Shown here: in pieces, positions 5,725 through 30,838 of the stretch
Layout: every line of letters begins with the position of its first letter
How positions within the stretch are numbered: position 1 is the first letter of the stretch
NCBI GenBank assembly: GCA_016281775.1
Contig: JAEEJH010000079.1
Span: 1,636 to 65,635 of the forward strand
From: Clostridiales bacterium
GTDB taxonomy: Bacteria > Bacillota > Clostridia > Oscillospirales > CAG-272
Reading direction: 5' to 3'
Length of the DNA stretch: 64,000 nucleotides
Position numbers and translations under genes: made by a program
The notes under the pieces: generated by a model
Seen by the model: only the letters and a program-made list of their open reading frames with translations
Database searches by the model: none
Told to the model about the DNA's origin: nothing

Positions 5725-7823
5725 ACCGTTTCGTGCTGAGTTCTGCTGAGTATGTCTTCCTGTACTTCTCTGCCGAGCGTTACGAATATCGCCGAGAAGC
5801 CCGAAACGCGCACGACGAGCGTCGGATAGTTCTCAGGGTGCTCCATAGCGTCGATCAGCGTTTCTCTCGACGTTGAATTTATCTGTATCTCCTGCCCGCC
5901 GCGACTGAAATAGACGCGTATCAGCTGAAGTAGTTTTTCGCGCTTGCCGTCTTTAAATGCCGCAGGCGTGAATTTCTGATTGACGACCGTACCGCACGCA
6001 CAGCGCGTATAATCGGGCTTGGAGAGGCTCAGAAGCGTCGACGTTACGCCTCGAGTATCGCATCCGTACGTAGGCGACGCCGCGTCTGATAACGGCTTGC
6101 CGGCGAGTCTTCCGTCAGGAGTAGCCGCAAGGTCTCTGCCCGCGTGTATATTCGATACATTAGCCGCCATGGCGGTGTAGACGGCGCCGCCGTCATACGT
6201 AGTATAGTTATCGAACATATCGTTAAGCGTCTTTGTATACCATACCGCGTATTTGTCGGCGTATTCACTGTTGTTGCCGTATTTGGGCGCCGATCTGCAG
6301 AGTTCGCGCAATTCTTCATATCCGGCGAAATCTGCTTTCAAGGCTTCTGCTATTTCGGAAAGTTTTGCTTTCTTTGTTTCATAGACGGTTTTTTCGATAG
6401 CCGCAAGCGAGTCGCTTACCGTACCGATGCCCATAAGAGCCGCACCGTGCACCGAAGGATATTTGCTGCCGCCCATGTTTATGTCGAGACCCCGTTCGAT
6501 ACAGAAGTCGCAGAAACACGACAGAAACGGCGACGTCATATTCTCCGGATCCTCCACGTACGCGTTCGCTCTCATTCTCTGTATATACTCTTCGACGCCT
6601 ATGGCGAGTTGAGCTTCGTATATGCTCATGAACTCGTCCATATCGGTTATGTTATCCAGCGCTTCCGCGTCGTATTTCAAAAGTATATCTTCAAGATAAC
6701 AGATCGGATCGAATCTGTTGTCTGACCACGGCGGCTGCATACCTGTTATGAAATTTTCGATACAGCCGACCATGCAGTAATTACGCACGTCTCTTATATC
6801 ATAGCCTTTGCGTGATAACGCTGTGATATTGACAGGATCGTTCATAAGCGCGGGATAACCGAGACCGGTGCCTATGACTTTGAGGCATTCATCGAGAAAT
6901 TCATCCGGGCAGTCGGGCGTTATACGCGCGGAGAGGTTCGGCCCCGGCAGATTTACGTCGCGCACGGCGTGAAGCACACAGTAACTCAGTCCGTTTACGG
7001 AACAGTTCCCTTCTTCATCAACGCCGCCGATACATATATTAACTACGTCGTCGCCGCCCGAGAATCTGCGTTCGCATATCTTCAAAAAAGCGTTTGCAAG
7101 CAGTTCTGTCGCATACTCGTCTGTAAGCGAGCCGTTTTCGATATCCTGTTTATAAAGTGGATACAAGAACATGTCGATGCGCCCTATCGCCATCGCGTAT
7201 CTGCCTTCGGAGACAAAGCAGTTGTGGATCATCCATACGAGCTGAAGCCCCTCCATAAAAGTCTTAGGAGCGTGTTTAGTCAAAGCAATGCAGTTGTCAG
7301 CAATAAGTGTAAGACGTTTTTCATCATATCCCGGCGTGCCGATAAGCGCTTTAGCGGCTTCGGCGTAAGCAGTCAGCTTATCGCACAGAGCGATAAGCGT
7401 TTTTTTCATACTGTCAAGAAATGCGATCTTTTCGGCGTCGTCTTTATGAGCTTCTTTAGATTTTTCGATTTTCCCGATAAGTCCCGGTATACCGATATTC
7501 ACGGCTGTGAAATAATCAGGCGCGAAATGATCTACTCCCTGCCAGAAATTGCGCTCAGGATATTTTGCCATATATTGCGAAACAAGTTCCGCATCCTCCT
7601 GCGTCGGCGCAACGTAATAAGGCCTTATACTGCCGACGATCAGATCGTTTTTGTAAATATAAGGTTTCGGTTGAGTGAACACGGCGGCGATCCCGTCGGC
7701 GCGTATATCCGGCAGGCATTCCGACCGGGACGCTTCATACCCGCGGCATTTGAACAGATGCGGACAGAATACGCCCTGCGGCGCATTTTTCATTTCTTCT
7801 TTAAGACCGTTCAGAATACTCAT
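5721..7823 (-). CDS. Glycyl radical enzyme, PFL2/dehydratase-like, unusually short (700 aa)
   Basis: The C-terminal glycyl radical motif is LVVRVSGFSAIFV (Gly675 codon at 5799-5801). The Cys loop is NYCMVGCIENF, with Cys354 (codon 6762-6764) followed by Glu356. That is the GCxE pattern seen in GRE eliminases/dehydratases. Confidence 0.85.
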   Translation of the reverse strand: MSILNGLKEEMKNAPQGVFCPHLFKCRGYEASRSECLPDIRADGIAAVFTQPKPYIYKNDLIVGSIRPYYVAPTQEDAELVSQYMAKYPERNFWQGVDHFAPDYFTAVNIGIPGLIGKIEKSKEAHKDDAEKIAFLDSMKKTLIALCDKLTAYAEAAKALIGTPGYDEKRLTLIADNCIALTKHAPKTFMEGLQLVWMIHNCFVSEGRYAMAIGRIDMFLYPLYKQDIENGSLTDEYATELLANAFLKICERRFSGGDDVVNICIGGVDEEGNCSVNGLSYCVLHAVRDVNLPGPNLSARITPDCPDEFLDECLKVIGTGLGYPALMNDPVNITALSRKGYDIRDVRNYCMVGCIENFITGMQPPWSDNRFDPICYLEDILLKYDAEALDNITDMDEFMSIYEAQLAIGVEEYIQRMRANAYVEDPENMTSPFLSCFCDFCIERGLDINMGGSKYPSVHGAALMGIGTVSDSLAAIEKTVYETKKAKLSEIAEALKADFAGYEELRELCRSAPKYGNNSEYADKYAVWYTKTLNDMFDNYTTYDGGAVYTAMAANVSNIHAGRDLAATPDGRLAGKPLSDAASPTYGCDTRGVTSTLLSLSKPDYTRCACGTVVNQKFTPAAFKDGKREKLLQLIRVYFSRGGQEIQINSTSRETLIDAMEHPENYPTLVVRVSGFSAIFVTLGREVQEDILSRTQHETV

Positions 7824-21420: not shown

Positions 21421-21439
21421 AGCCGTTATTTTGTTACGC

Positions 21440-22363
21440 TCAGTCCTTTTTGACGAGTTTTTCTATCTCAGCCGCAAAGTCGTCTTCGCGTTTCTGCAGA
21501 CCTTCGCCCTTGTTGTAAACCACGAACGCCGCGACTTTCATCGCTTTGCCCTGTTCTTTGGCGACGGATTCAACGTACTTGCCTACGGTGTAATCGGAAT
21601 CCTTGACGTATTCCTGCCAAAGCAGACAGTTGGTGTCATAGAATTTCTCTATTCTGCCGGTTATCATCTTTTCGATGACCTGTGCGGGTTTGGAGGCGAG
21701 CTTCGGATCGTTTTTGATCTGCGCCGCAAGTATCTCTTTTTCGGATTCGATAACGGAAGCGGGAACGTCGCCTTTATCAAGATACGTCGGGTTCATGGCC
21801 GCGATCTGAAGAGCCACGTTCTTGCCGCATTCTGCGTAATCAGCGCCTTCTTCGCATTCCATCTTTACGATAACGCCTGTAACGCCGCCGCCGTGGATAT
21901 ATGTGACCACGTTGCCTTCTACGATAACGAAACGGCGGATGCTCATGTTTTCGCCTATAGTGAATATCTTGTCTTTCAGGCTTGCTTCAACGGTAAATTC
22001 GGAACCGTAAAGCGGGAGCTTGAGCAGATCTTCAACGTTAGCGGGTTTATATTCGAGTATGGTCTTTTCAACCTGTTTGACAAAATCGCGGAAAGAAGCG
22101 TTCTTCGCAACGAAGTCGGTTTCGGCGTTGACTTCGATCATAACGGCGGTCTTGCCATCTTCGGATACGAGTATGTCAACGACGCCTTCAGCGGCTATTC
22201 TCGCCGCCTTTTTGCCGGCTACCGCAAGACCTTTTTCACGGAGGATCTTGATAGCTTCTTCAAAATCGCCGTCAGCCTCAACAAGAGCCTTTTTGCAGTC
22301 CATCATGCCGCAGTTTGTTTTTGCGCGGAGTTCCGCAACGTCTTTAGCAGTGAAATTTGCCAT
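21440..22363 (-). CDS. tsf: Translation elongation factor Ts
   Basis: 307 aa with the N-terminal VAELRAKTNCGMMDCKKAL UBA-like motif. Confidence 0.95.
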   Translation of the reverse strand: MANFTAKDVAELRAKTNCGMMDCKKALVEADGDFEEAIKILREKGLAVAGKKAARIAAEGVVDILVSEDGKTAVMIEVNAETDFVAKNASFRDFVKQVEKTILEYKPANVEDLLKLPLYGSEFTVEASLKDKIFTIGENMSIRRFVIVEGNVVTYIHGGGVTGVIVKMECEEGADYAECGKNVALQIAAMNPTYLDKGDVPASVIESEKEILAAQIKNDPKLASKPAQVIEKMITGRIEKFYDTNCLLWQEYVKDSDYTVGKYVESVAKEQGKAMKVAAFVVYNKGEGLQKREDDFAAEIEKLVKKD

Positions 22364-22381
22364 GTTTTTATCCTGCCTTTC

Positions 22382-23140
22382 TTATTCTGCCGAATCGTCG
22401 GAAGCGGGAGCTTCTTCAGCTGTTTCGGCCGGTTTTTCTTCTTCGGGAGCGTTCTGCTCGCCCTGTCTGCCTTCGATAACGGCGTCTGCGAGAACGGAGC
22501 TGATCAGTTTGATCGCTCTGATGGCGTCGTCGTTGCCGGGGATGACGTAATCGGCGTCATCGGGGTCGCAGTTGGTATCGATGATGGCGATCACCGGGAT
22601 ACCGAGTTTCTTCGCTTCGAGAACGGCGTTTCTTTCTTTCTTCGGGTCGACTATGAATATAGCGGACGGAAGTTTGTCCATCGTTTTGATGCCGCCGTAG
22701 TTCTTCTGGAGCTCTTCGATCTCTTTGCCGAGCTTCGCGGCTTCTTTCTTCGGAAGATTGCTTATCGTTCCGTCAGCCTGCATCTGTTCGAGCTTTTCAA
22801 GTCTTTCGATGCTCTTCTTGATGGTTCTGAAGTTGGTAAGCATACCGCCGGGCCAACGAACGTTGACGTGGTACATGCCGCATCTTACCGCTTCTTCTTT
22901 GATGGCGTCGGCCGCCTGCTTTTTCGTACCGACGAAAAGAAGTGTACCACCCTCTTCGGAAAGCTGTCTGACGAACATATAAGCTTCCTCAAATTTCTTG
23001 ACGGTCTTGGAGAGGTCGATTATATAAATACCGTTTCTCTCCGTGAAGATGTATTCCTTCATTTTAGGGTTCCATCTTCTGGTCTGGTGTCCGAAATGGA
23101 CGCCTGCTTCAAGCAGCTGCTTGATAGTTACTACTGCCAT
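22382..23140 (-). CDS. rpsB: 30S ribosomal protein S2
   Basis: I trimmed the start to [25 protein letters not shown] (ATG 23138-23140), which is preceded by GAGGAGGAAAA. The 46-residue N-terminal extension of the listed ORF is not S2-like. Confidence 0.95.
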
Positions 23141-23274
23141 TTTATTTTCCTCCTCAGGTTTTTCCTCCACGGGTGATCCGCTTACCGTATATACGGACCT
23201 GTGCGGACGGTTTGAGCCGTGTGCGGATTTATTTTTATCCGTGCAGTTTTCGGATAAATTCAATGTAATATAAC

Positions 23275-23304
23275 ACAAAAAAGCTATTTGTGCAATAGCT
23301 TTTT
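23275..23304 (-). terminator. Rho-independent (bidirectional-looking) terminator after ylmC/ymxH
   Basis: Stem AGCTATT (23282-23288) with AATAGCT (23294-23300), flanked by an A-run on one side and a T-run on the other. Confidence 0.65.
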
Positions 23305-24914: not shown

Positions 24915-26597
24915 TCAGGTTTCTGTTTTGTTCTTTTTAAGCATTTCTTCGGCGGTCTCGACGACTTTTTTCGTTATCTGCACGCCGCCTATTATTCTTG
25001 AAAGCTCCTCAACGCGCTCCCGGTCGTTAAGCGTTTTCGTAAAAGTCTGCGTTCTGTCTCCGACGTCTTTTTTATATACGAGCACGTGATTGTCTGCCTG
25101 TGCGGCGACCTGCGCCGAATGGGTTATTGCGATCACCTGGCACCCTTTCGCCGTATAACGGAGCCTTTGTCCGATGCGTTCAGACGTCGCGCCGGATATC
25201 CCGGTATCGACCTCGTCGTATATGACCGTATCTATATCGTCCTTACCGGCGAAAACGCTTTTGAGCGCAAGCATGATCCTCGACAGTTCTCCTCCGGATG
25301 CCGTCTTGTCAAGCGGTTTAAGTTCGTCGCCGGTATTCGCTGCGAGCAGAAATATCACGTCGTCGGCGCCTTTTGCGTTGAGCTGGACCCTTCTTACCAC
25401 GCTCGTTTCGAACCGGACCTTTTTCAGGTCGAGATAATACAACTCGTCCCTTACGGCTTTCGTAAGCAGCGCGGCGCCCTTTTCTCTCTTTTCCGACAGC
25501 TTTGCGGCAAGAGCTACCGCGGTCGCTTTTTCTTTTTTGATCTCTGCTTTGATTTCGTTGATCTCGTCGTCAACGGCGCGGAGCTTTTCGAGCTCACGCT
25601 TCATTTCCGCCGAATAAGCTTTGATCTCGTTTATGTCGGAACCGTATTTGCGTTTCAGCTGTCTTATCAGTCCGAGCCGTTCTTCGATCGCATCGAGCGC
25701 GGCGGCGGGATCGTCGCCGTATCCGTCGATCAGTTGTCTCACGGAATGGGCTATATCATCGATTTCGTATCGGAAACCGGAAAGCTTTTTTATATATTCC
25801 TCTATCTTGTCGCTGTGCTCCGTCTGATTAAGAGCCTCGAGAGCGTTCACGGCCAGTGCGATCTTATCAGACGCCGAAGCGGATTTTTCGCTTCTGTAAA
25901 GGCTTTTATATACCGTTTTTACGTATTTTGCCGTTTGTTCTATATTTTTTATCCGCTCACGCGAAGCGATAAGCTCGTCTTCTTCGCCGTCTTTCAGCTT
26001 TGCCGAATCTATCTCTTTGATCTGCCTTTGAAGTTCTTCTATCCTTCTTGCCTTTTCTTTTTCGTCCATCATAAGTGAACGCTGCTTCGATATCAGCCCG
26101 TTGAGCGTCTCAAAGCTCTTTGAATATTCGCCAAGCAGCGGCTTGTTTTCGCAGTAAGCGTCGAGATACGCTATATGAGTTTCCGTATCGAGAAGGTCCT
26201 GCGCGGAGTTCTGCCCGTGAATCGAGATCAGATTTTTCGTCACCGTTTTGAGTACGTACATCGGTACGGTCTTACCGTTGCATTTTATCAGATTTCTGCC
26301 GTTATCCGAGATCTCTCTGCAGATCAGCAGTTCGCCGTCGCAAGGTATGCCGGCTTCTGTTATATTTTTGATTTTATCCTCGCCGAGGCTGCAGAACAGC
26401 GCTTCAACGGACGCTGAAGTCTCGCCGGCGCGTATCAGATCTCTGTTTGCTTTTTCGCCGAGAAGTAAATTCACGCTGTCGATAATGATCGATTTGCCGG
26501 CACCGGTCTCGCCCGAGAGTACGGTAAAACCACGGTCGAATTCGATGTCGACCGTTTTTATCGTTGCCACGTTCTCAATATGAAGCGATACGAGCAT
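24915..26597 (-). CDS. recN: DNA repair protein RecN
   Basis: 560 aa. It has Walker A GETGAGKS, a long coiled-coil middle, and a C-terminal SGGELSRIMLA signature. Confidence 0.95.
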   Translation of the reverse strand: MLVSLHIENVATIKTVDIEFDRGFTVLSGETGAGKSIIIDSVNLLLGEKANRDLIRAGETSASVEALFCSLGEDKIKNITEAGIPCDGELLICREISDNGRNLIKCNGKTVPMYVLKTVTKNLISIHGQNSAQDLLDTETHIAYLDAYCENKPLLGEYSKSFETLNGLISKQRSLMMDEKEKARRIEELQRQIKEIDSAKLKDGEEDELIASRERIKNIEQTAKYVKTVYKSLYRSEKSASASDKIALAVNALEALNQTEHSDKIEEYIKKLSGFRYEIDDIAHSVRQLIDGYGDDPAAALDAIEERLGLIRQLKRKYGSDINEIKAYSAEMKRELEKLRAVDDEINEIKAEIKKEKATAVALAAKLSEKREKGAALLTKAVRDELYYLDLKKVRFETSVVRRVQLNAKGADDVIFLLAANTGDELKPLDKTASGGELSRIMLALKSVFAGKDDIDTVIYDEVDTGISGATSERIGQRLRYTAKGCQVIAITHSAQVAAQADNHVLVYKKDVGDRTQTFTKTLNDRERVEELSRIIGGVQITKKVVETAEEMLKKNKTET

Positions 26598-26608
26598 AAC
26601 AGACTTCC

Positions 26609-27088
26609 TCAGTTAGGTTTTGAATTAAGTATCTCCGTAAGTTTGTTTTTGACGTCTACTGCGTCTTTTTCAGTCTTGCAGGCAATGAATATGTTGTCGT
26701 CGCCCGCTATCGATCCGAGCACGCTTTCCCAGCCGAGATAGTCGACTGCGGCCGCGGCCGCAGGCGCCATTCCCGAAAATGTCTTGACTATGACAAGGTT
26801 CATCGCCGACGTACAGCTGATCACCGCCTCATACAGGACCGTCGCGTATTTGTTCTCCGTATATTCCGACGCTGTCGACGGGCTTTTATATTTATAAATT
26901 CCCTTTTTATCTGTAGCCTTGGTCAGCTTCAGTTCTCTTATGTCGCGCGATACCGTCGCCTGTGTAACTTCAAAACCCGAAGCGCGGAGCAGGTTCATAA
27001 GTTCTTCCTGCGTTTCGACGTCCTTTGAATCAATGAGCTCAAGTATCCTCATATGACGCATTTTCTTTACTTTGTTGCTTGTGTTCAT
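26609..27088 (-). CDS. argR: Arginine repressor
   Basis: 159 aa. It has a winged-helix N-terminus (QEELMNLLRASGFEVTQATVSRDIRELKL) and a C-terminal GSIAGDDNIFI oligomerisation/arginine-binding motif. Confidence 0.9.
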   Translation of the reverse strand: MNTSNKVKKMRHMRILELIDSKDVETQEELMNLLRASGFEVTQATVSRDIRELKLTKATDKKGIYKYKSPSTASEYTENKYATVLYEAVISCTSAMNLVIVKTFSGMAPAAAAAVDYLGWESVLGSIAGDDNIFIACKTEKDAVDVKNKLTEILNSKPN

Positions 27089-27091
27089 GAT

Positions 27092-27922
27092 CTACGTTCC
27101 GATCCTTTTGAGTATTTTTGAAGCGAAATTCATATCGTCGAAGACGACCGTTTGAGCGGTCAGCGACGATCTTTTTATTGCCGCCGTACAGCCGCGCCCG
27201 ATTTTTATATCTTCGGCTCCGTCAAGAGTCATATATACCGTCTTATCGGGAGTCGATACGTTTCTTACTTCTATCTCGCACCCGTCGTCGAAAACGAAAC
27301 TGCGCGAAGACGTAGTATGAGGGCAAACCGGAGTCACGATCAGGCACGGAGCCGTTGTATCGACCGCGGGTCCGCCGGCAGACATATTGAAGCCGCTCGA
27401 ACCGGTAGGGGTGCATACGATAAGCGCGGTACTTGCGTAACGCATCGTCTTTTCACCGTTGACCGTTATCTCCGTGTTTACCATTCGCGAAGCCCGCGCT
27501 TCCGCAAACACCGCGTCGTTCAGCGCCAAACGCTCCCTGCCGTCGTAAGTAACGGAAAGTACCGTTCTTTTTACTATTCTGTATTTACCCTCCGAGAGAT
27601 CCGAGAGCTTGTACAGTTCGTTCTTTTCGAGCGCCGAGAGATATCCGACTCTGCCGAGGTTTACGCCGACGACCGGTATACCGAACGCGGCGGCTTTTTT
27701 TGCACGGTCGATCAGCGTCCCGTCGCCGCCGAAAACTATGAGAAAATCCGTATCGGTATAAAGATCGTCTTCGCCGTCTGCGCGGACGGCGCCGTCGAAC
27801 TCACCGTATGAATACGGTATTTTAACCGTATTGCCGTTTGATAACAGTATCTTCACCGCTTCTCTTATCAGATCGGCCGCTTCGGGTTTATACGTATTAG
27901 CCGTTATTGCAAAACTGGACAT
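27092..27922 (-). CDS. nadK: NAD kinase
   Basis: 276 aa with the FGGDGTLI motif and TPTGSSGFNMSAGGP. Confidence 0.9.
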   Translation of the reverse strand: MSSFAITANTYKPEAADLIREAVKILLSNGNTVKIPYSYGEFDGAVRADGEDDLYTDTDFLIVFGGDGTLIDRAKKAAAFGIPVVGVNLGRVGYLSALEKNELYKLSDLSEGKYRIVKRTVLSVTYDGRERLALNDAVFAEARASRMVNTEITVNGEKTMRYASTALIVCTPTGSSGFNMSAGGPAVDTTAPCLIVTPVCPHTTSSRSFVFDDGCEIEVRNVSTPDKTVYMTLDGAEDIKIGRGCTAAIKRSSLTAQTVVFDDMNFASKILKRIGT

Positions 27923-27932
27923 TGTCAGTTCC

Positions 27933-28655
27933 TCATTCCTTGATATAATAAGAAAGAAATTCAGTATTGCCGTCGCCGCCTTTGACCGGCGAAACGGTAA
28001 GACCTTTATTAGTTAAACCCTGACCGGCGCAGAATGAAACGATTTTTTCGCATACAGGCCGGTGATATTCCGGCTTGGCAATGCCGTTTTTGCCTATCCC
28101 CGCTTTGCCGGCCTCGAACTGAGGTTTGATAAGCGAGACGAAAACGCCGCCGGGTCTTAGTATCTTCACTATATTCGGTATAATAAGCGTCTGCGATATG
28201 AACGAGACGTCTATCACGACGATATCGCAATACTCGTTTATAAGCTCGTATCCGAGTTCTCTTGCGTTGAAGCCTTCTATATTTATGACGCGCGGATCTG
28301 ACAGAAGAGACGGATCGAGCTGACCTCGCCCTCCGTCTATCGCGTAGACCTTCGCCGCTCCGCGCTGCAAAAGACAGTCCGTAAAGCCGCCGGTCGACGC
28401 GCCTATATCGGCGCAGACGAACCCTGAAACATTGATTTTAAATTTATCGAGCGCCGCTTCGAGCTTATAACCGCCTCGGCTGACGTATCTGGGCAGCTCT
28501 CCCGTTATCTCTATAACGTCGCTGTCGGTCATCTGATCGGACGGTTTTGAAACGGTTTTGCCGTTGAGTAAGACCGAACCGTTTTTTATAAGCTGCTGCG
28601 CCGCGCTCCTGCTTTTTGCGTAACCTTTGTTAAAAAGAAAAACGTCCGCTCTCAT
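27933..28655 (-). CDS. tlyA: TlyA-family rRNA 2'-O-methyltransferase (S4 plus FtsJ domains)
   Basis: 240 aa with N-terminal MRADVFLFNKGYAKSRSAAQQLIKNG (S4) and DIGASTGGFTDCLLQRGA (SAM motif). Confidence 0.9.
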   Translation of the reverse strand: MRADVFLFNKGYAKSRSAAQQLIKNGSVLLNGKTVSKPSDQMTDSDVIEITGELPRYVSRGGYKLEAALDKFKINVSGFVCADIGASTGGFTDCLLQRGAAKVYAIDGGRGQLDPSLLSDPRVINIEGFNARELGYELINEYCDIVVIDVSFISQTLIIPNIVKILRPGGVFVSLIKPQFEAGKAGIGKNGIAKPEYHRPVCEKIVSFCAGQGLTNKGLTVSPVKGGDGNTEFLSYYIKE

Positions 28656-28660
28656 ATCTT

Positions 28661-29239
28661 CTACTTTCTTTTGAAAAACGACAGGAATCTCGATACCGCA
28701 AGGACGATATTATAACTCTTTTTGATGCCGACAGATTTGCCGAGCGCCTTGCCGCCGACGGTTATACCCGTAATAAGAGACGTTATTATCAGGTTTGCAA
28801 TGAATTCTCTTTCCGGATCGGAAAACAAACTTATTATGATCGCTGCGCCGGTCGATCCGGATACGACGCCCGCGATGTCGCCGACTATATCGGCGCAGAT
28901 GTTGTTGACCTTTTCGGCGTTTCTGATCAGCGATACGGCTACCGTACCGGCTTTGAGCTTACGCGCCGACATGGACAAAAAAGGTTTGATATCAGCCGTT
29001 GTGACGGCGATACCGATTATATCAAATACTACGTTTATAAGTATAAAGATCAGAAGCACTATGAACGCCGCGGCAAGATTCAATCTTTCAAGCACTGAAT
29101 TCGATATCAGCGCAAGCAGTACCGAGCCGGCAATACTGATGAGCACGGCTTTGAAAAACCAGCTCCAGTCGACGGATCTTTTTTGTTTCGATCTCTTTTT
29201 ATCGCGTTTTTTTCGCGGTTTTTCGTCTGAATTATCCAA
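28661..29239 (-). CDS. oapA: Small 4-TM membrane protein in the OapA (OLE-associated protein A) position
   Basis: 192 aa. The TTG start at 29237-29239 lies 7 nt after GAAAGGAG. It has a Lys/Arg-rich N-terminus, four hydrophobic helices, and two Asp in a helix (CADIVGDIAG). It lies immediately 3' of the structured RNA and upstream of tlyA. The assignment rests on synteny and architecture only. Confidence 0.6.
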   Translation of the reverse strand: MDNSDEKPRKKRDKKRSKQKRSVDWSWFFKAVLISIAGSVLLALISNSVLERLNLAAAFIVLLIFILINVVFDIIGIAVTTADIKPFLSMSARKLKAGTVAVSLIRNAEKVNNICADIVGDIAGVVSGSTGAAIIISLFSDPEREFIANLIITSLITGITVGGKALGKSVGIKKSYNIVLAVSRFLSFFKRK

Positions 29240-29261
29240 AAACAGACTCCTTTCAAATAAA

Positions 29262-29866
29262 TAAGACGGTAACAGACTGCGTAAACCTTGCGGTATGAGG
29301 TCGAGTACTATTTCAGCATCTTCCGCCTCTCGTTACCGATCGGCGGTTTCCCATTATGGAAGAAGCCCGCCCGTCGCCGGCGCGGGGACTCGATTGCCTT
29401 TCCGTAGGATAGCCGCACTGCAATCCGCAGTCTGCCTTATTTTCATAAACAGCCTAGGGGATTTCCCCGATCAAGAGGTAGACCGATTTAGCCTCTTTTG
29501 CAGCGACGGTTTCAGCGAGCAATAGCATTGCCGCCCGGCCAAGGCAAGCAGCGCTTGGATCCCGCATTCGCCGGCACCACTCAAGGCAGGCTACACTATC
29601 CACAGCAACAGATTCGTACCGCGCGATAGGTTTAATCCCCTGCCCGTAATATATTTCCGAATGCCGTCAATACCACAGACAGGGGCCTCCACGGTAAGAG
29701 GGTCGCCACCGTATGCCGTTACGGCGCGCCCTCAGACCTATCTCCCAGCACCCACCCCAAACTGGGCGTAAGAAGCAAGCACAAGGAGCTTCATCGATAT
29801 GCCCTTTGACGGATTTTTAGGCCCGTTTTCAAACGATTTCTCTCAAACTAGGATACTGCACCGTCG
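29262..29866 (-). ncRNA. ole: Large structured noncoding RNA, most likely OLE (ornate, large, extremophilic) RNA
   Basis: There is a roughly 690-nt gap between ispA and the 4-TM gene with no credible ORF. A consensus promoter lies at 29874-29901. Many nested helices are readable, given here in plus coordinates: GAGGG 29698-29702 with CCCTC 29729-29733; GGCAGG 29585-29590 with CCTGCC 29639-29644; CTATC 29596-29600 with GATAG 29625-29629; AAGAGG 29473-29478 with CCTCTT 29492-29497; GGGG-attt-CCCC 29457-29468. The roughly 600 nt length and the xseA-xseB-ispA-[RNA]-membrane protein-tlyA-nadK-argR-recN context match published OLE loci. The ends are approximate. Confidence 0.75.
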
Positions 29867-29873
29867 AATTTTT

Positions 29874-29901
29874 ATTATACCATAAATTTTCGGAATTTCA
29901 A
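29874..29901 (-). promoter_or_regulatory. Sigma-A type promoter driving the structured RNA and oapA
   Basis: On the minus strand: TTGAAA (plus 29896-29901), a 16-nt spacer, then TATAAT (plus 29874-29879) preceded by TGG (extended -10). Confidence 0.65.
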
Positions 29902-29947
29902 TAGTTTTTGCAAAAAATATGCAGAATTATTAAATAAAAATTCAGTA

Positions 29948-30838
29948 TTATACGTTTCTTTCGAGCAAATAATCGGCTAAATCCATAAGATCTCTGCTCT
30001 TTTCACCGTATTTTGATATCGCGTTTTTCGCCGTTTCTGTAAGTTTTGCCGCAAGAGACTGAGCCTGACCGAGCGTCATGAAAGACAGTACGGTAGTTTT
30101 GCCGTTTTCGGCGTCGCTGCCGACAGGTTTACCGAACACCGCTTCATCGGCGATCACGTCAAGAATATCGTCACGTATCTGAAAAGCTCTGCCGACGCAC
30201 GAGGCGTAGATATCCGCGTTTTTATAGGTGTCGTCGTCCTCGCATCCCGCGGCAATAAGACCGAGCTTTGCGGCGCAGCGGATCAGCGCGCCGGTCTTCA
30301 GAGCGTTCATTTTTTCGTACTCTCTTTTATCGAGAGTTTTTGATTCGCCGATAAGATCCATCACCTGACCGCCGACCATGCCGAACATACCGGCACAACT
30401 CGACAGCGCTTTGACCGCTTTGACCTTGAGTTCCGGCGCGGCGTCCGAGTCTGCGATGATCTCAAATGCGTAAGTGTTCAGCGCGTCGCCTGCAAGAGTA
30501 GCGTTCGCCTCGCCGTAGACCTTATGGTTCGTCGGTTTGCCGCGTCTCAGATCGTCGTCGTCCATACACGGCAGATCGTCGTGTATAAGAGAATAAGTAT
30601 GTATACATTCGAGCGCCGAGGCGAAATACAGAGCGGTCTTGGAAAACGGATCTGCACCGGCAAGTTCCGAGAATTTCAGAACGAGAAACGGCCTGATCCT
30701 TTTACCGCCGTTTTTGACGCTGTAATTCACCGCCTCAAATATCACCGGATAATCGGCGTCCGTCATATCTAAAACGTCATATAAGAAACCGTTTACTTTC
30801 TCATTATATGACTTCATTGTTTCGGTTATTTTGCTCAT
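29948..30838 (-). CDS. ispA: Farnesyl/geranyl diphosphate synthase (polyprenyl synthetase)
   Basis: 296 aa with the first Asp-rich motif LIHDDLPCMDDDDLRRG and the second, FQIRDDILD. Confidence 0.9.
   Translation of the reverse strand: MSKITETMKSYNEKVNGFLYDVLDMTDADYPVIFEAVNYSVKNGGKRIRPFLVLKFSELAGADPFSKTALYFASALECIHTYSLIHDDLPCMDDDDLRRGKPTNHKVYGEANATLAGDALNTYAFEIIADSDAAPELKVKAVKALSSCAGMFGMVGGQVMDLIGESKTLDKREYEKMNALKTGALIRCAAKLGLIAAGCEDDDTYKNADIYASCVGRAFQIRDDILDVIADEAVFGKPVGSDAENGKTTVLSFMTLGQAQSLAAKLTETAKNAISKYGEKSRDLMDLADYLLERNV

Follow-up and report, generated by a model that had tools for sequence, protein, structure and literature searches.

Introduction

Among the largest conserved non-coding RNAs of bacteria is OLE (ornate, large, extremophilic), a membrane-associated RNA of about 600 nt. 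A recent proposal has it crossing the membrane, and the family is thus of real interest. More than 2,800 genomic representatives are known (PMC11332333), and about 25% of the nucleotides of the RNA are reported to be more than 97% conserved. The full-length form has been studied in Halalkalibacterium halodurans, and cryo-electron microscopy (cryo-EM) structures have come from the Clostridium acetobutylicum and C. botulinum RNAs. Here we examine an OLE RNA gene (ole) and the adjacent gene for its membrane partner OapA in a 64,000-nucleotide stretch of a Clostridiales bacterium genome (GenBank assembly GCA_016281775.1, contig JAEEJH010000079.1, positions 1,636 to 65,635). This stretch is hereafter called the window; coordinates are those of the window, and features lie on its minus strand unless stated otherwise.

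In the cryo-EM structures an A-A contact of loop L4 forms a bridge of the OLE dimer, B1 (PMC12286853, PMC12265935), and loop L9.3 is the kissing loop of the dimer, with GGCC, GAUC and AGCU palindromes covarying there (PMC12286853). The stem P3/P3.1, which typically sums to about 12 bp (PMC12265935), is the one proposed by published models to span the membrane. Protein partners have been mapped to other parts of the RNA. OapC recognises the OLE kink-turn (k-turn; PMC9723947, PMC12286853). OapB binds primarily at hairpin P13, which requires a GNRA loop and a 1-nt bulge, and weakly at a secondary site, P14.1 (PMC7936274); the P13 site also marks full-length OLE, as opposed to variant 1 (PMC7936274, PMC11332333). 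That OapA binds OLE RNA at a ratio of 2:1 and localises it to the membrane is known solely for the H. halodurans pair. The OapA of this species shows weak similarity to CNNM, has 7M1U as its top structural match and carries a DxxxD motif that is absent from CNNM domains (PMC11332333).

A first-pass annotation of the window, made from its sequence, had proposed an OLE RNA next to ispA and had proposed OapA for the 192-aa protein encoded beside it. Our analysis leaves very little doubt that the locus is an ole-oapA module, i.e., a standard full-length OLE RNA gene (29250-29880) followed by oapA (28661-29239), the gene for the membrane anchor OapA. The loci closest to that of the window belong to rumen or gut metagenome-assembled genomes (MAGs) labelled Ruminococcus sp. 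or Clostridia bacterium, and the host of the module is probably an uncultured Clostridia bacterium of the rumen or gut. Such a host would fit a family found in Bacillota, typically in anaerobes or extremophiles.

Methods

The whole window was scanned with Rfam 15. Its genes were taken from a greedy map of open reading frames (ORFs), which is fallible: in one place rpsB and tsf were masked by a spurious 581-aa ORF on the plus strand. Other OLE loci were gathered from species-representative genomes by means of a 19-nt conserved signature, AAAGGGCANATCGATGAAG, and the bounds of each OLE RNA were set by Rfam coordinates. The signature returned 120 loci, one of which was without OLE, leaving about 119 OLE loci. 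The odd one, L085, is a contig of Streptomyces sp. NPDC007856 in which the signature is present with no Rfam OLE match and no neighbour genes. It is a chance match, and the 19-nt signature alone is therefore not fully specific.

For covariation, the window RNA and 23 Rfam-delimited OLE RNAs were aligned with MAFFT, blind to structure (alignment A2); the Rfam base pairs were then projected onto the alignment, and helix P1 and the helix CAGU..CUAG/CUAG..CUG were added. The closest public relative, the rumen MAG RUG11869 (locus L001), was used as a species-level sister, with an OLE RNA 94.9% identical and an OapA 91% identical to those of the window.

Results

A full-length OLE RNA lies between ispA and the membrane protein gene

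OLE was the sole Rfam match in the window. The match to RF01071 is 631 nt long and covers model positions 1-616 of 616 without truncation; its score is 425.5 bits (E 1.4e-121), where the gathering score is 50. This bears out the first-pass proposal and excludes the alternative raised with it, that a different large RNA occupies the OLE niche. The structured core of the gene runs from the 5' strand of P1 at 29865 to its 3' strand at 29265. As P7, P8 and a long P9 are all present, the RNA belongs with full-length OLE and is neither variant 1 nor variant 2.

Conservation is high across the model. Canonical pairing is found at 143 of the 159 consensus base pairs of RF01071, and 216 of the 249 conserved (upper-case) consensus nucleotides are identical in the window. 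At positions conserved in at least 95% of 110 other OLE RNAs, as judged from a MAFFT alignment, the window has the same nucleotide in 168 out of 173 cases. The first-pass annotation had described the minus-strand transcript as packed with nested helices, and the helices indeed stand far above chance: in addition to the score and the canonical pairs, minimum-free-energy folding gives a z-score of -3.4. Alignment A2 gives a similar picture for the family, with standard pairing in 86.3% of cells, falling to 39-46% when partners are slid by one to three columns, and with changes on both sides in 124 of 172 pairs; no measure observed was attained by any of 500 shuffles.

The bounds given at first needed small corrections. 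A non-coding gap does separate ispA from the 192-aa ORF, although it measures 708 nt (29240-29947) and not about 690 nt. The RNA had been said to end immediately before the ribosome-binding site (RBS) of the membrane protein gene. The unstructured tail of the Rfam match enters this site, whereas the structured RNA stops at 29265, where the 3' strand of P1 ends.

The structural elements of full-length OLE are retained

The outermost helix, P1, is formed by GACGGU (29860-29865) and ACCGUC (29265-29270) and lies outside the Rfam structure. Five of its six pairs change on both sides in A2 and 99.3% of cells pair; the window has the rarer A-U and C-G variants where G-C and U-A are usual. Next to P1, the invariant segment CAGUAUCCUAG (29848-29858) pairs with CUAGGCUG (29450-29457) in a helix that we read as P2 of the published numbering. 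Its eight pairs are standard throughout the 24 sequences; seven of them show no variation and therefore neither support nor contradict the helix.

P3/P3.1 is formed by 29834-29846 (UUGAGAG..AUCG) with 29471-29485 (CGGU....CUCUUGA), i.e., stems of 7 and 4 bp (11 bp in all) that flank a 2x4 internal loop, with a computed energy of -7.2 kcal/mol (RNAduplex). The equivalent segments pair in 21 of 22 other delimitable OLE RNAs, over 11-16 bp, despite differences in sequence.

Both dimerisation elements are present at the sequence level. The P4 hairpin (29808-29827) carries the A-rich loop CCUAAAAA, with a run of A at 29814-29818. The sequence of its L4 loop (29811-29821), CCUAAAAAUCC, equals the consensus, and the UAAA core is invariant in the 24 sequences. 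The P9 arm (29491-29587, loop UUGGCCGG) has 35 model pairs, 31 of them canonical, and places a GGCC palindrome at 29537-29540, in L9.3.

Strands of the putative k-turn for OapC can be located in the sequence. The segment AAAGGGCAUAUCGAUGAAG (29789-29807), which includes the J4a/5 strand AUCGAUGAAG, departs from the consensus at a single variable base and is almost invariant in the 24 sequences. The J6/7 partner strand CCGUGGAG (29687-29694) likewise matches the consensus, and J5/6 reads A-UAGG in place of UUAAGG. For OapB, the primary site P13 (29366-29386) has canonical pairs at eight out of eight positions, with a G bulged out at 29381 and GCGA (29374-29377) as its GNRA loop. The hairpin P14.1 (29325-29344) is capped by GUAA (29333-29336), again a GNRA loop, and its stem contains a tandem G-A/A-G. 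As far as sequence can tell, the OLE RNA of the window retains the published elements for dimerisation, for OapB and probably OapC binding and for the P3 stem.

The mini-hairpin P15 (29308-29316) reads CU-GAAAU-AG, where more than 95% of OLE RNAs have GG-GAAAU-CC. The changes G565C and C573G, which are two of the five deviations at positions at least 95% conserved, join with G566U and C572A in a double compensatory swap, seen in A2 and common only to the window and L001. We considered a linked pair of changes in domain 2 (AGUGG to AAAGG, and GGGGAAAUCC to GCUGAAAUAG), and rejected it, as loci L032, L054 and L126 have the first change only; the change from GGGGAAAUCC to GCUGAAAUAG is due to the internal P15 swap. 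The domain 2 junction is also variable elsewhere: L001 has a shorter replacement of the usual ACUAAGUGG, and L032, L054 and L126 deviate there too. In a further locus, L004 (4992-5727; a Christensenellaceae MAG), OLE spans the full model at 256 bits and 736 nt, and is either much more divergent or more laden with insertions than the others (391-554 bits).

The 192-aa protein is an OapA orthologue

The gene oapA (28661-29239) begins 10 nt past the Rfam OLE match with a TTG start, 7 nt after AAAGGAG (29247-29253), which from the sequence we read as its RBS. The first-pass description of the product, a basic N-terminus, four transmembrane helices and the motif CADIVGDIAG, was well founded. There are 12 K/R among the first 30 residues, the N- and C-terminal tails are both basic, and the motif spans residues 115-124, its D117 and D121 falling within a predicted long helix (108-138). 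The AlphaFold2 model, built from a 57-sequence alignment (mean pLDDT 76.6, pTM 0.65), has four long helices at 25-52, 55-81, 108-138 and 142-173. We read these as four putative transmembrane spans, and we infer the topology from the positive-inside rule. By simple hydropathy, only 25-84 and 118-140 stand out.

By BLASTP, the window protein matches 95 of 95 OLE-adjacent ORFs (150-260 aa) at E 1e-22 or better, with 28-91% identity, in a database made up solely of those 95 proteins. The proposed identity is therefore upheld by homology to the ORF that follows OLE in every comparable locus, with DxxxD kept. The matched loci range from Bacillaceae to Clostridia, with cultured Lederbergia, Alkaliphilus, Clostridium, Caloramator, Thermincola and Paenibacillus among them. 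When 5.8 billion proteins were searched, 542 relatives were returned, nearly all of them unnamed proteins of uncultured Clostridia. Every family-invariant residue is kept in the window, i.e., D73, D117, G120, D121, S127/G128, K164 and K168. The two aspartates of D117-x-x-x-D121 are invariant in both OapA alignments (95 and 57 sequences), as are K164 and K168 of G163-K164-x-x-x-K168. The protein departs from the majority at eight positions conserved in at least 80% of sequences (N69, I84, L88, S91, A97, A116, I118 and G171).

The relation to CNNM is more distant. PF01595 scores 19.3 bits against the window protein, below the Pfam cut-off of 28.4, and some of the 542 relatives carry a precomputed PF01595 match or the name CNNM domain-containing protein. 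Searches of NCBIfam and of sequences in the Protein Data Bank with the window protein gave no match. In Foldseek, the top three matches of the model were chains of MtCorB, an archaeal CNNM (7M1T_B, 7M1T_A and 7M1U_A), with a probability of 1.00 and query-normalised TM-scores of 0.47-0.56 over about 137 aligned columns; the next match had an E value above 1. The fold comparison and the weak Pfam match are the only ties of the window protein to CNNM, and both agree with what is published for OapA (PMC11332333). The 192-aa protein is thus orthologous to OapA; it has the DxxxD motif, and its fold is CNNM-like.

The ole gene has a promoter-like site of its own within a long gene cluster

A sigma-70-type promoter-like site lies at 29874-29901, composed of TTGAAA, a 16-nt spacer and TATAAT with a TG extended -10. 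It agrees with the consensus at 11 of 12 positions and has TG ahead of the -10. The sister locus has TTGAAA-16-TGtTATAAT at an equal distance from P1. In B. halodurans most OLE expression has been shown experimentally to come from a proximal promoter whose start is beside P1 (PMC3413148). Judging by this arrangement, transcription of ole in the host would use this site and start a few nt before P1.

We found no terminator-like site on the minus strand between 28400 and 30200, so none separates ole from oapA. Strong minus-strand sites of this type occur only at 33632-33605 and at 21421-21393, and OLE therefore lies inside a long co-directional cluster, which extends from nusB through recN and on through tyrS, rpsB and tsf.

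Gene neighbourhood

The order xseA-xseB-ispA-RNA-membrane protein-tlyA-nadK-argR-recN, which had been put forward as an OLE/OapA context, is borne out by Pfam and NCBIfam. Upstream of the RNA is ispA, encoding farnesyl diphosphate synthase (29948-30838; PF00348 E 5.6e-60, NF045485 311 bits against a cut-off of 275). Downstream of oapA are tlyA for a TlyA-family methyltransferase (27933-28655), nadK for NAD kinase (27092-27922), argR (26609-27088) and recN (24915-26597), all assigned by Pfam and NCBIfam. The genes from tlyA to recN are spaced by 3-13 nt, with tyrS beyond them, and all are on the minus strand. ArgR, whose gene thus falls within the ole cluster, has been named as an unpublished candidate OLE-binding protein (PMC12265935).

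A full-text search of the literature for OLE gene order with ispA, recN or xseA gave no usable paper, and we counted loci instead. Directly downstream of OLE, oapA is found in 97 of 98 testable loci, and ispA is directly upstream in 75 of 98. In the 45 loci with enough downstream sequence, tlyA was found in 39, and argR (same strand) and recN in 32 each. The gene context of the window is the usual one for OLE, except that dxs is missing. In the window tlyA starts 5 nt past oapA with no dxs at that position; in most OLE loci its start lies about 3.1 kb past the OLE signature, and a dxs-sized ORF (about 560-630 aa) stands between oapA and tlyA in those inspected, i.e., L039 and the Christensenellales loci. 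L039 (an Ammoniphilus sp. MAG) is the only one of the 98 testable OLE loci without an adjacent oapA. It has a full-length OLE of 499.7 bits with ispA upstream, a 628-aa dxs-sized ORF in place of oapA, and tlyA-nadK-argR-recN downstream.

Further along the cluster, the 581-aa plus-strand ORF (21431-23176) has no Pfam match and is spurious, and the real genes are on the minus strand at 21440-23278. By sequence, these are tsf-like (21440-22363) and rpsB-like (22382-23278), followed further downstream, by reading, by pyrH. Judging solely from the size and the N-terminal sequence of the ORFs, candidates for frr, uppS, cdsA, dxr, rseP and ispG follow, as does a polC-like gene of 1491 aa.

A group of loci with oapA next to ispA

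In about 21 loci of Christensenella, Christensenellaceae and Clostridia MAGs (L005, L009-L013, L015-L019, L021-L023 and L025-L031), an OapA orthologue is encoded 17-117 nt past ispA, mostly 36-39 nt, and the oapA match starts near 6001 in most. At this distance there is therefore no room for ole. The proteins are 187-236 aa long, most of them 191-201 aa, and have all family-invariant residues and the motif NAEKVNNICADVIGD. The gene order is xseA-ispA-oapA, then a dxs-like gene of about 563 aa, then tlyA. Rfam found no OLE in the seven of these loci that were scanned, at the level of the locus. Either ole has moved elsewhere in the genome in this Christensenellales clade, or OapA works there without ole; the clade could help to tell apart what OapA does and what the OLE RNA does.

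Discussion

Given the match to the complete model and the orthologous OapA gene beside it, the question is how the peculiarities of the locus should be read. Several observations weigh against a standard, functional OLE RNA. The score of 425 bits is at the low end of 24 other scored loci (391-554, with one outlier at 256), and compares with about 500-550 for most loci. In addition, canonical pairing fails at 16 model pairs, the longer CUAUCCUACGGAAAGG (29397-29412) stands in for the usual junction ACUAAGUGG, and P3 (11 bp, -7.2 kcal/mol) ranks with the shortest and weakest of the sampled stems. Finally, the OapB and OapC genes were not found in the 64 kb covered. A scan of the small and unannotated ORFs of the window, using the gene map and Pfam, gave no OapB (KOW domain), OapC (L7Ae-type) or bS21; in other Bacillota the OapB and OapC genes are unlinked to ole. 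None of the low score, the non-canonical pairs, the replaced junction and the weak P3 contradicts membership of the OLE family.

The same deviations could suggest a decaying or non-functional relic that is no longer under selection, an idea that we rejected on comparison with L001 and consider very improbable. The two RNAs differ in 11 of 344 paired columns and in 21 of 287 unpaired columns. Eight base pairs are altered between them: three carry double compensatory changes, two have a change on one strand that preserves pairing, in two a pair is gained, and one is open in both RNAs, so that pairing is kept, restored or was never there, and is lost in none. As the differences never lose pairing, we conclude that the structure is under selection in the lineage of the window and L001. 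The near-invariant positions are kept at the high rate given above, oapA is intact with every invariant residue, and the promoter-like site is conserved in L001, all of which argue against decay. The idea that the region codes for protein and that the RNA match is incidental can be discarded altogether. It could draw on a 76-aa ORF on the opposite strand (29295-29525), but there is no sense-strand ORF of at least 50 aa anywhere in the 29240-29947 gap, and the longest within the OLE match is 49 aa. The first-pass annotation had itself named a conserved coding frame across homologues as a ground for refutation. The longest ORFs in the 24 homologues vary in strand, position and length, and there is therefore no conserved frame; moreover, substitutions follow base-pair covariation, and indels sit in hairpin loops.

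A further reading would make OLE here mainly cis-acting, a long structured 5' leader, riboswitch- or attenuator-like, over oapA-tlyA-nadK-argR-recN rather than a ribonucleoprotein acting in trans. The oapA start lies only about 25 nt past the 3' strand of P1, and with the RBS inside the tail of the Rfam match and no terminator-like site before oapA, ole and oapA are therefore co-transcribed at least in part. However, no expression platform is visible, whether a terminator or an RBS-sequestering helix. Furthermore, the H. halodurans OLE is discrete, very stable and abundant and works with OapA in trans-complementation (PMC3413148), and the RNA of the window keeps the dimerisation and protein-binding elements of that particle. 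We give this reading even less credence than that of a relic. Somewhat less remote, yet still unlikely, is that the window and L001 represent a lineage with a remodelled domain 2 (the junction, P15 and the short, weak P3) reflecting a changed or missing partner and, as a separate matter, that OapA has a function independent of OLE, as the loci with oapA only might indicate. If domain 2 were remodelled in this way, the lineage would be a natural variant for mapping domain 2 binding.

For the standard OLE-OapA pair that we favour, a mode of action can be sketched by analogy with H. halodurans and the two Clostridium species. The RNA would be strongly expressed from a promoter of its own and would also be part of the long nusB...recN transcript. 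It would then fold into two domains and form a homodimer through the A-A bridge of L4 and the GGCC kissing loop. Dimers of OapA may hold it at the membrane, together with OapB, OapC and bS21, and the particle may help the cell to cope with stresses, among them short-chain alcohols, cold, excess Mg2+ and poor carbon sources.

The locus adds one more ordinary OLE sequence to the family, and any Rfam-based annotation would label it. It has a small practical value in the extra covariation points at P1, at P15 and at P9 pairs when set against the sister MAG. It is also an example of a compact arrangement, with its own strong promoter-like site and no dxs gene.

Comparison with known systems places both partners within what has been described. 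GOLLD, ROOL and the raiA motif are likewise large, highly structured non-coding RNAs; they differ from OLE in having no membrane-protein partner gene and in occurring in other genomic contexts, and they gave no Rfam match in the window. On the protein side, the best structural match of OapA is the transmembrane-domain fold of the CNNM/CorB/MpfA Mg2+ transporters (PF01595; 7M1T, 7M1U), to which the weak Pfam match also points. Unlike these, the window protein has only 192 aa and is without CBS or CorC domains, its Pfam score falls below the cut-off, and it has DxxxD, which CNNM domains lack (PMC11332333). It is therefore not a curated member of the CNNM transporter family. With OapA it shares a small size, a gene right after ole, four long helices, DxxxD in a predicted transmembrane helix, the conserved basic K164 and K168, the basic tails, the weak CNNM similarity and the CorB-like fold. 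It differs from most sampled OapA proteins in its TTG start and in an identity of 28-47%, as against 91% to the sister MAG.

The RNA of the window resembles full-length OLE (RF01071) in its 631 nt and in having all model helices, including P7, P8 and the long P9, together with L4, the GGCC of L9.3, the J4a/5 and J6/7 strands of the k-turn, P13, P14.1, P15, P1 and P3/P3.1, and it is not one of the reduced types, variant 1 or variant 2 (PMC11332333). The promoter-like site adjoining P1, the oapA gene directly downstream and the neighbourhood of ispA and tlyA-argR-recN are also those of OLE. It is unlike the typical OLE RNA in its lower score, C-G/U-A pairs in P15, the replaced junction, a P3/P3.1 of 11 bp and the lack of dxs, and its P13 bulge is G, as opposed to U in B. 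halodurans. These differences from known OLE are lineage-level details only. The OLE/OapA pair of the window is an ordinary member of an already known family, and nothing about it deviates from that family as described.

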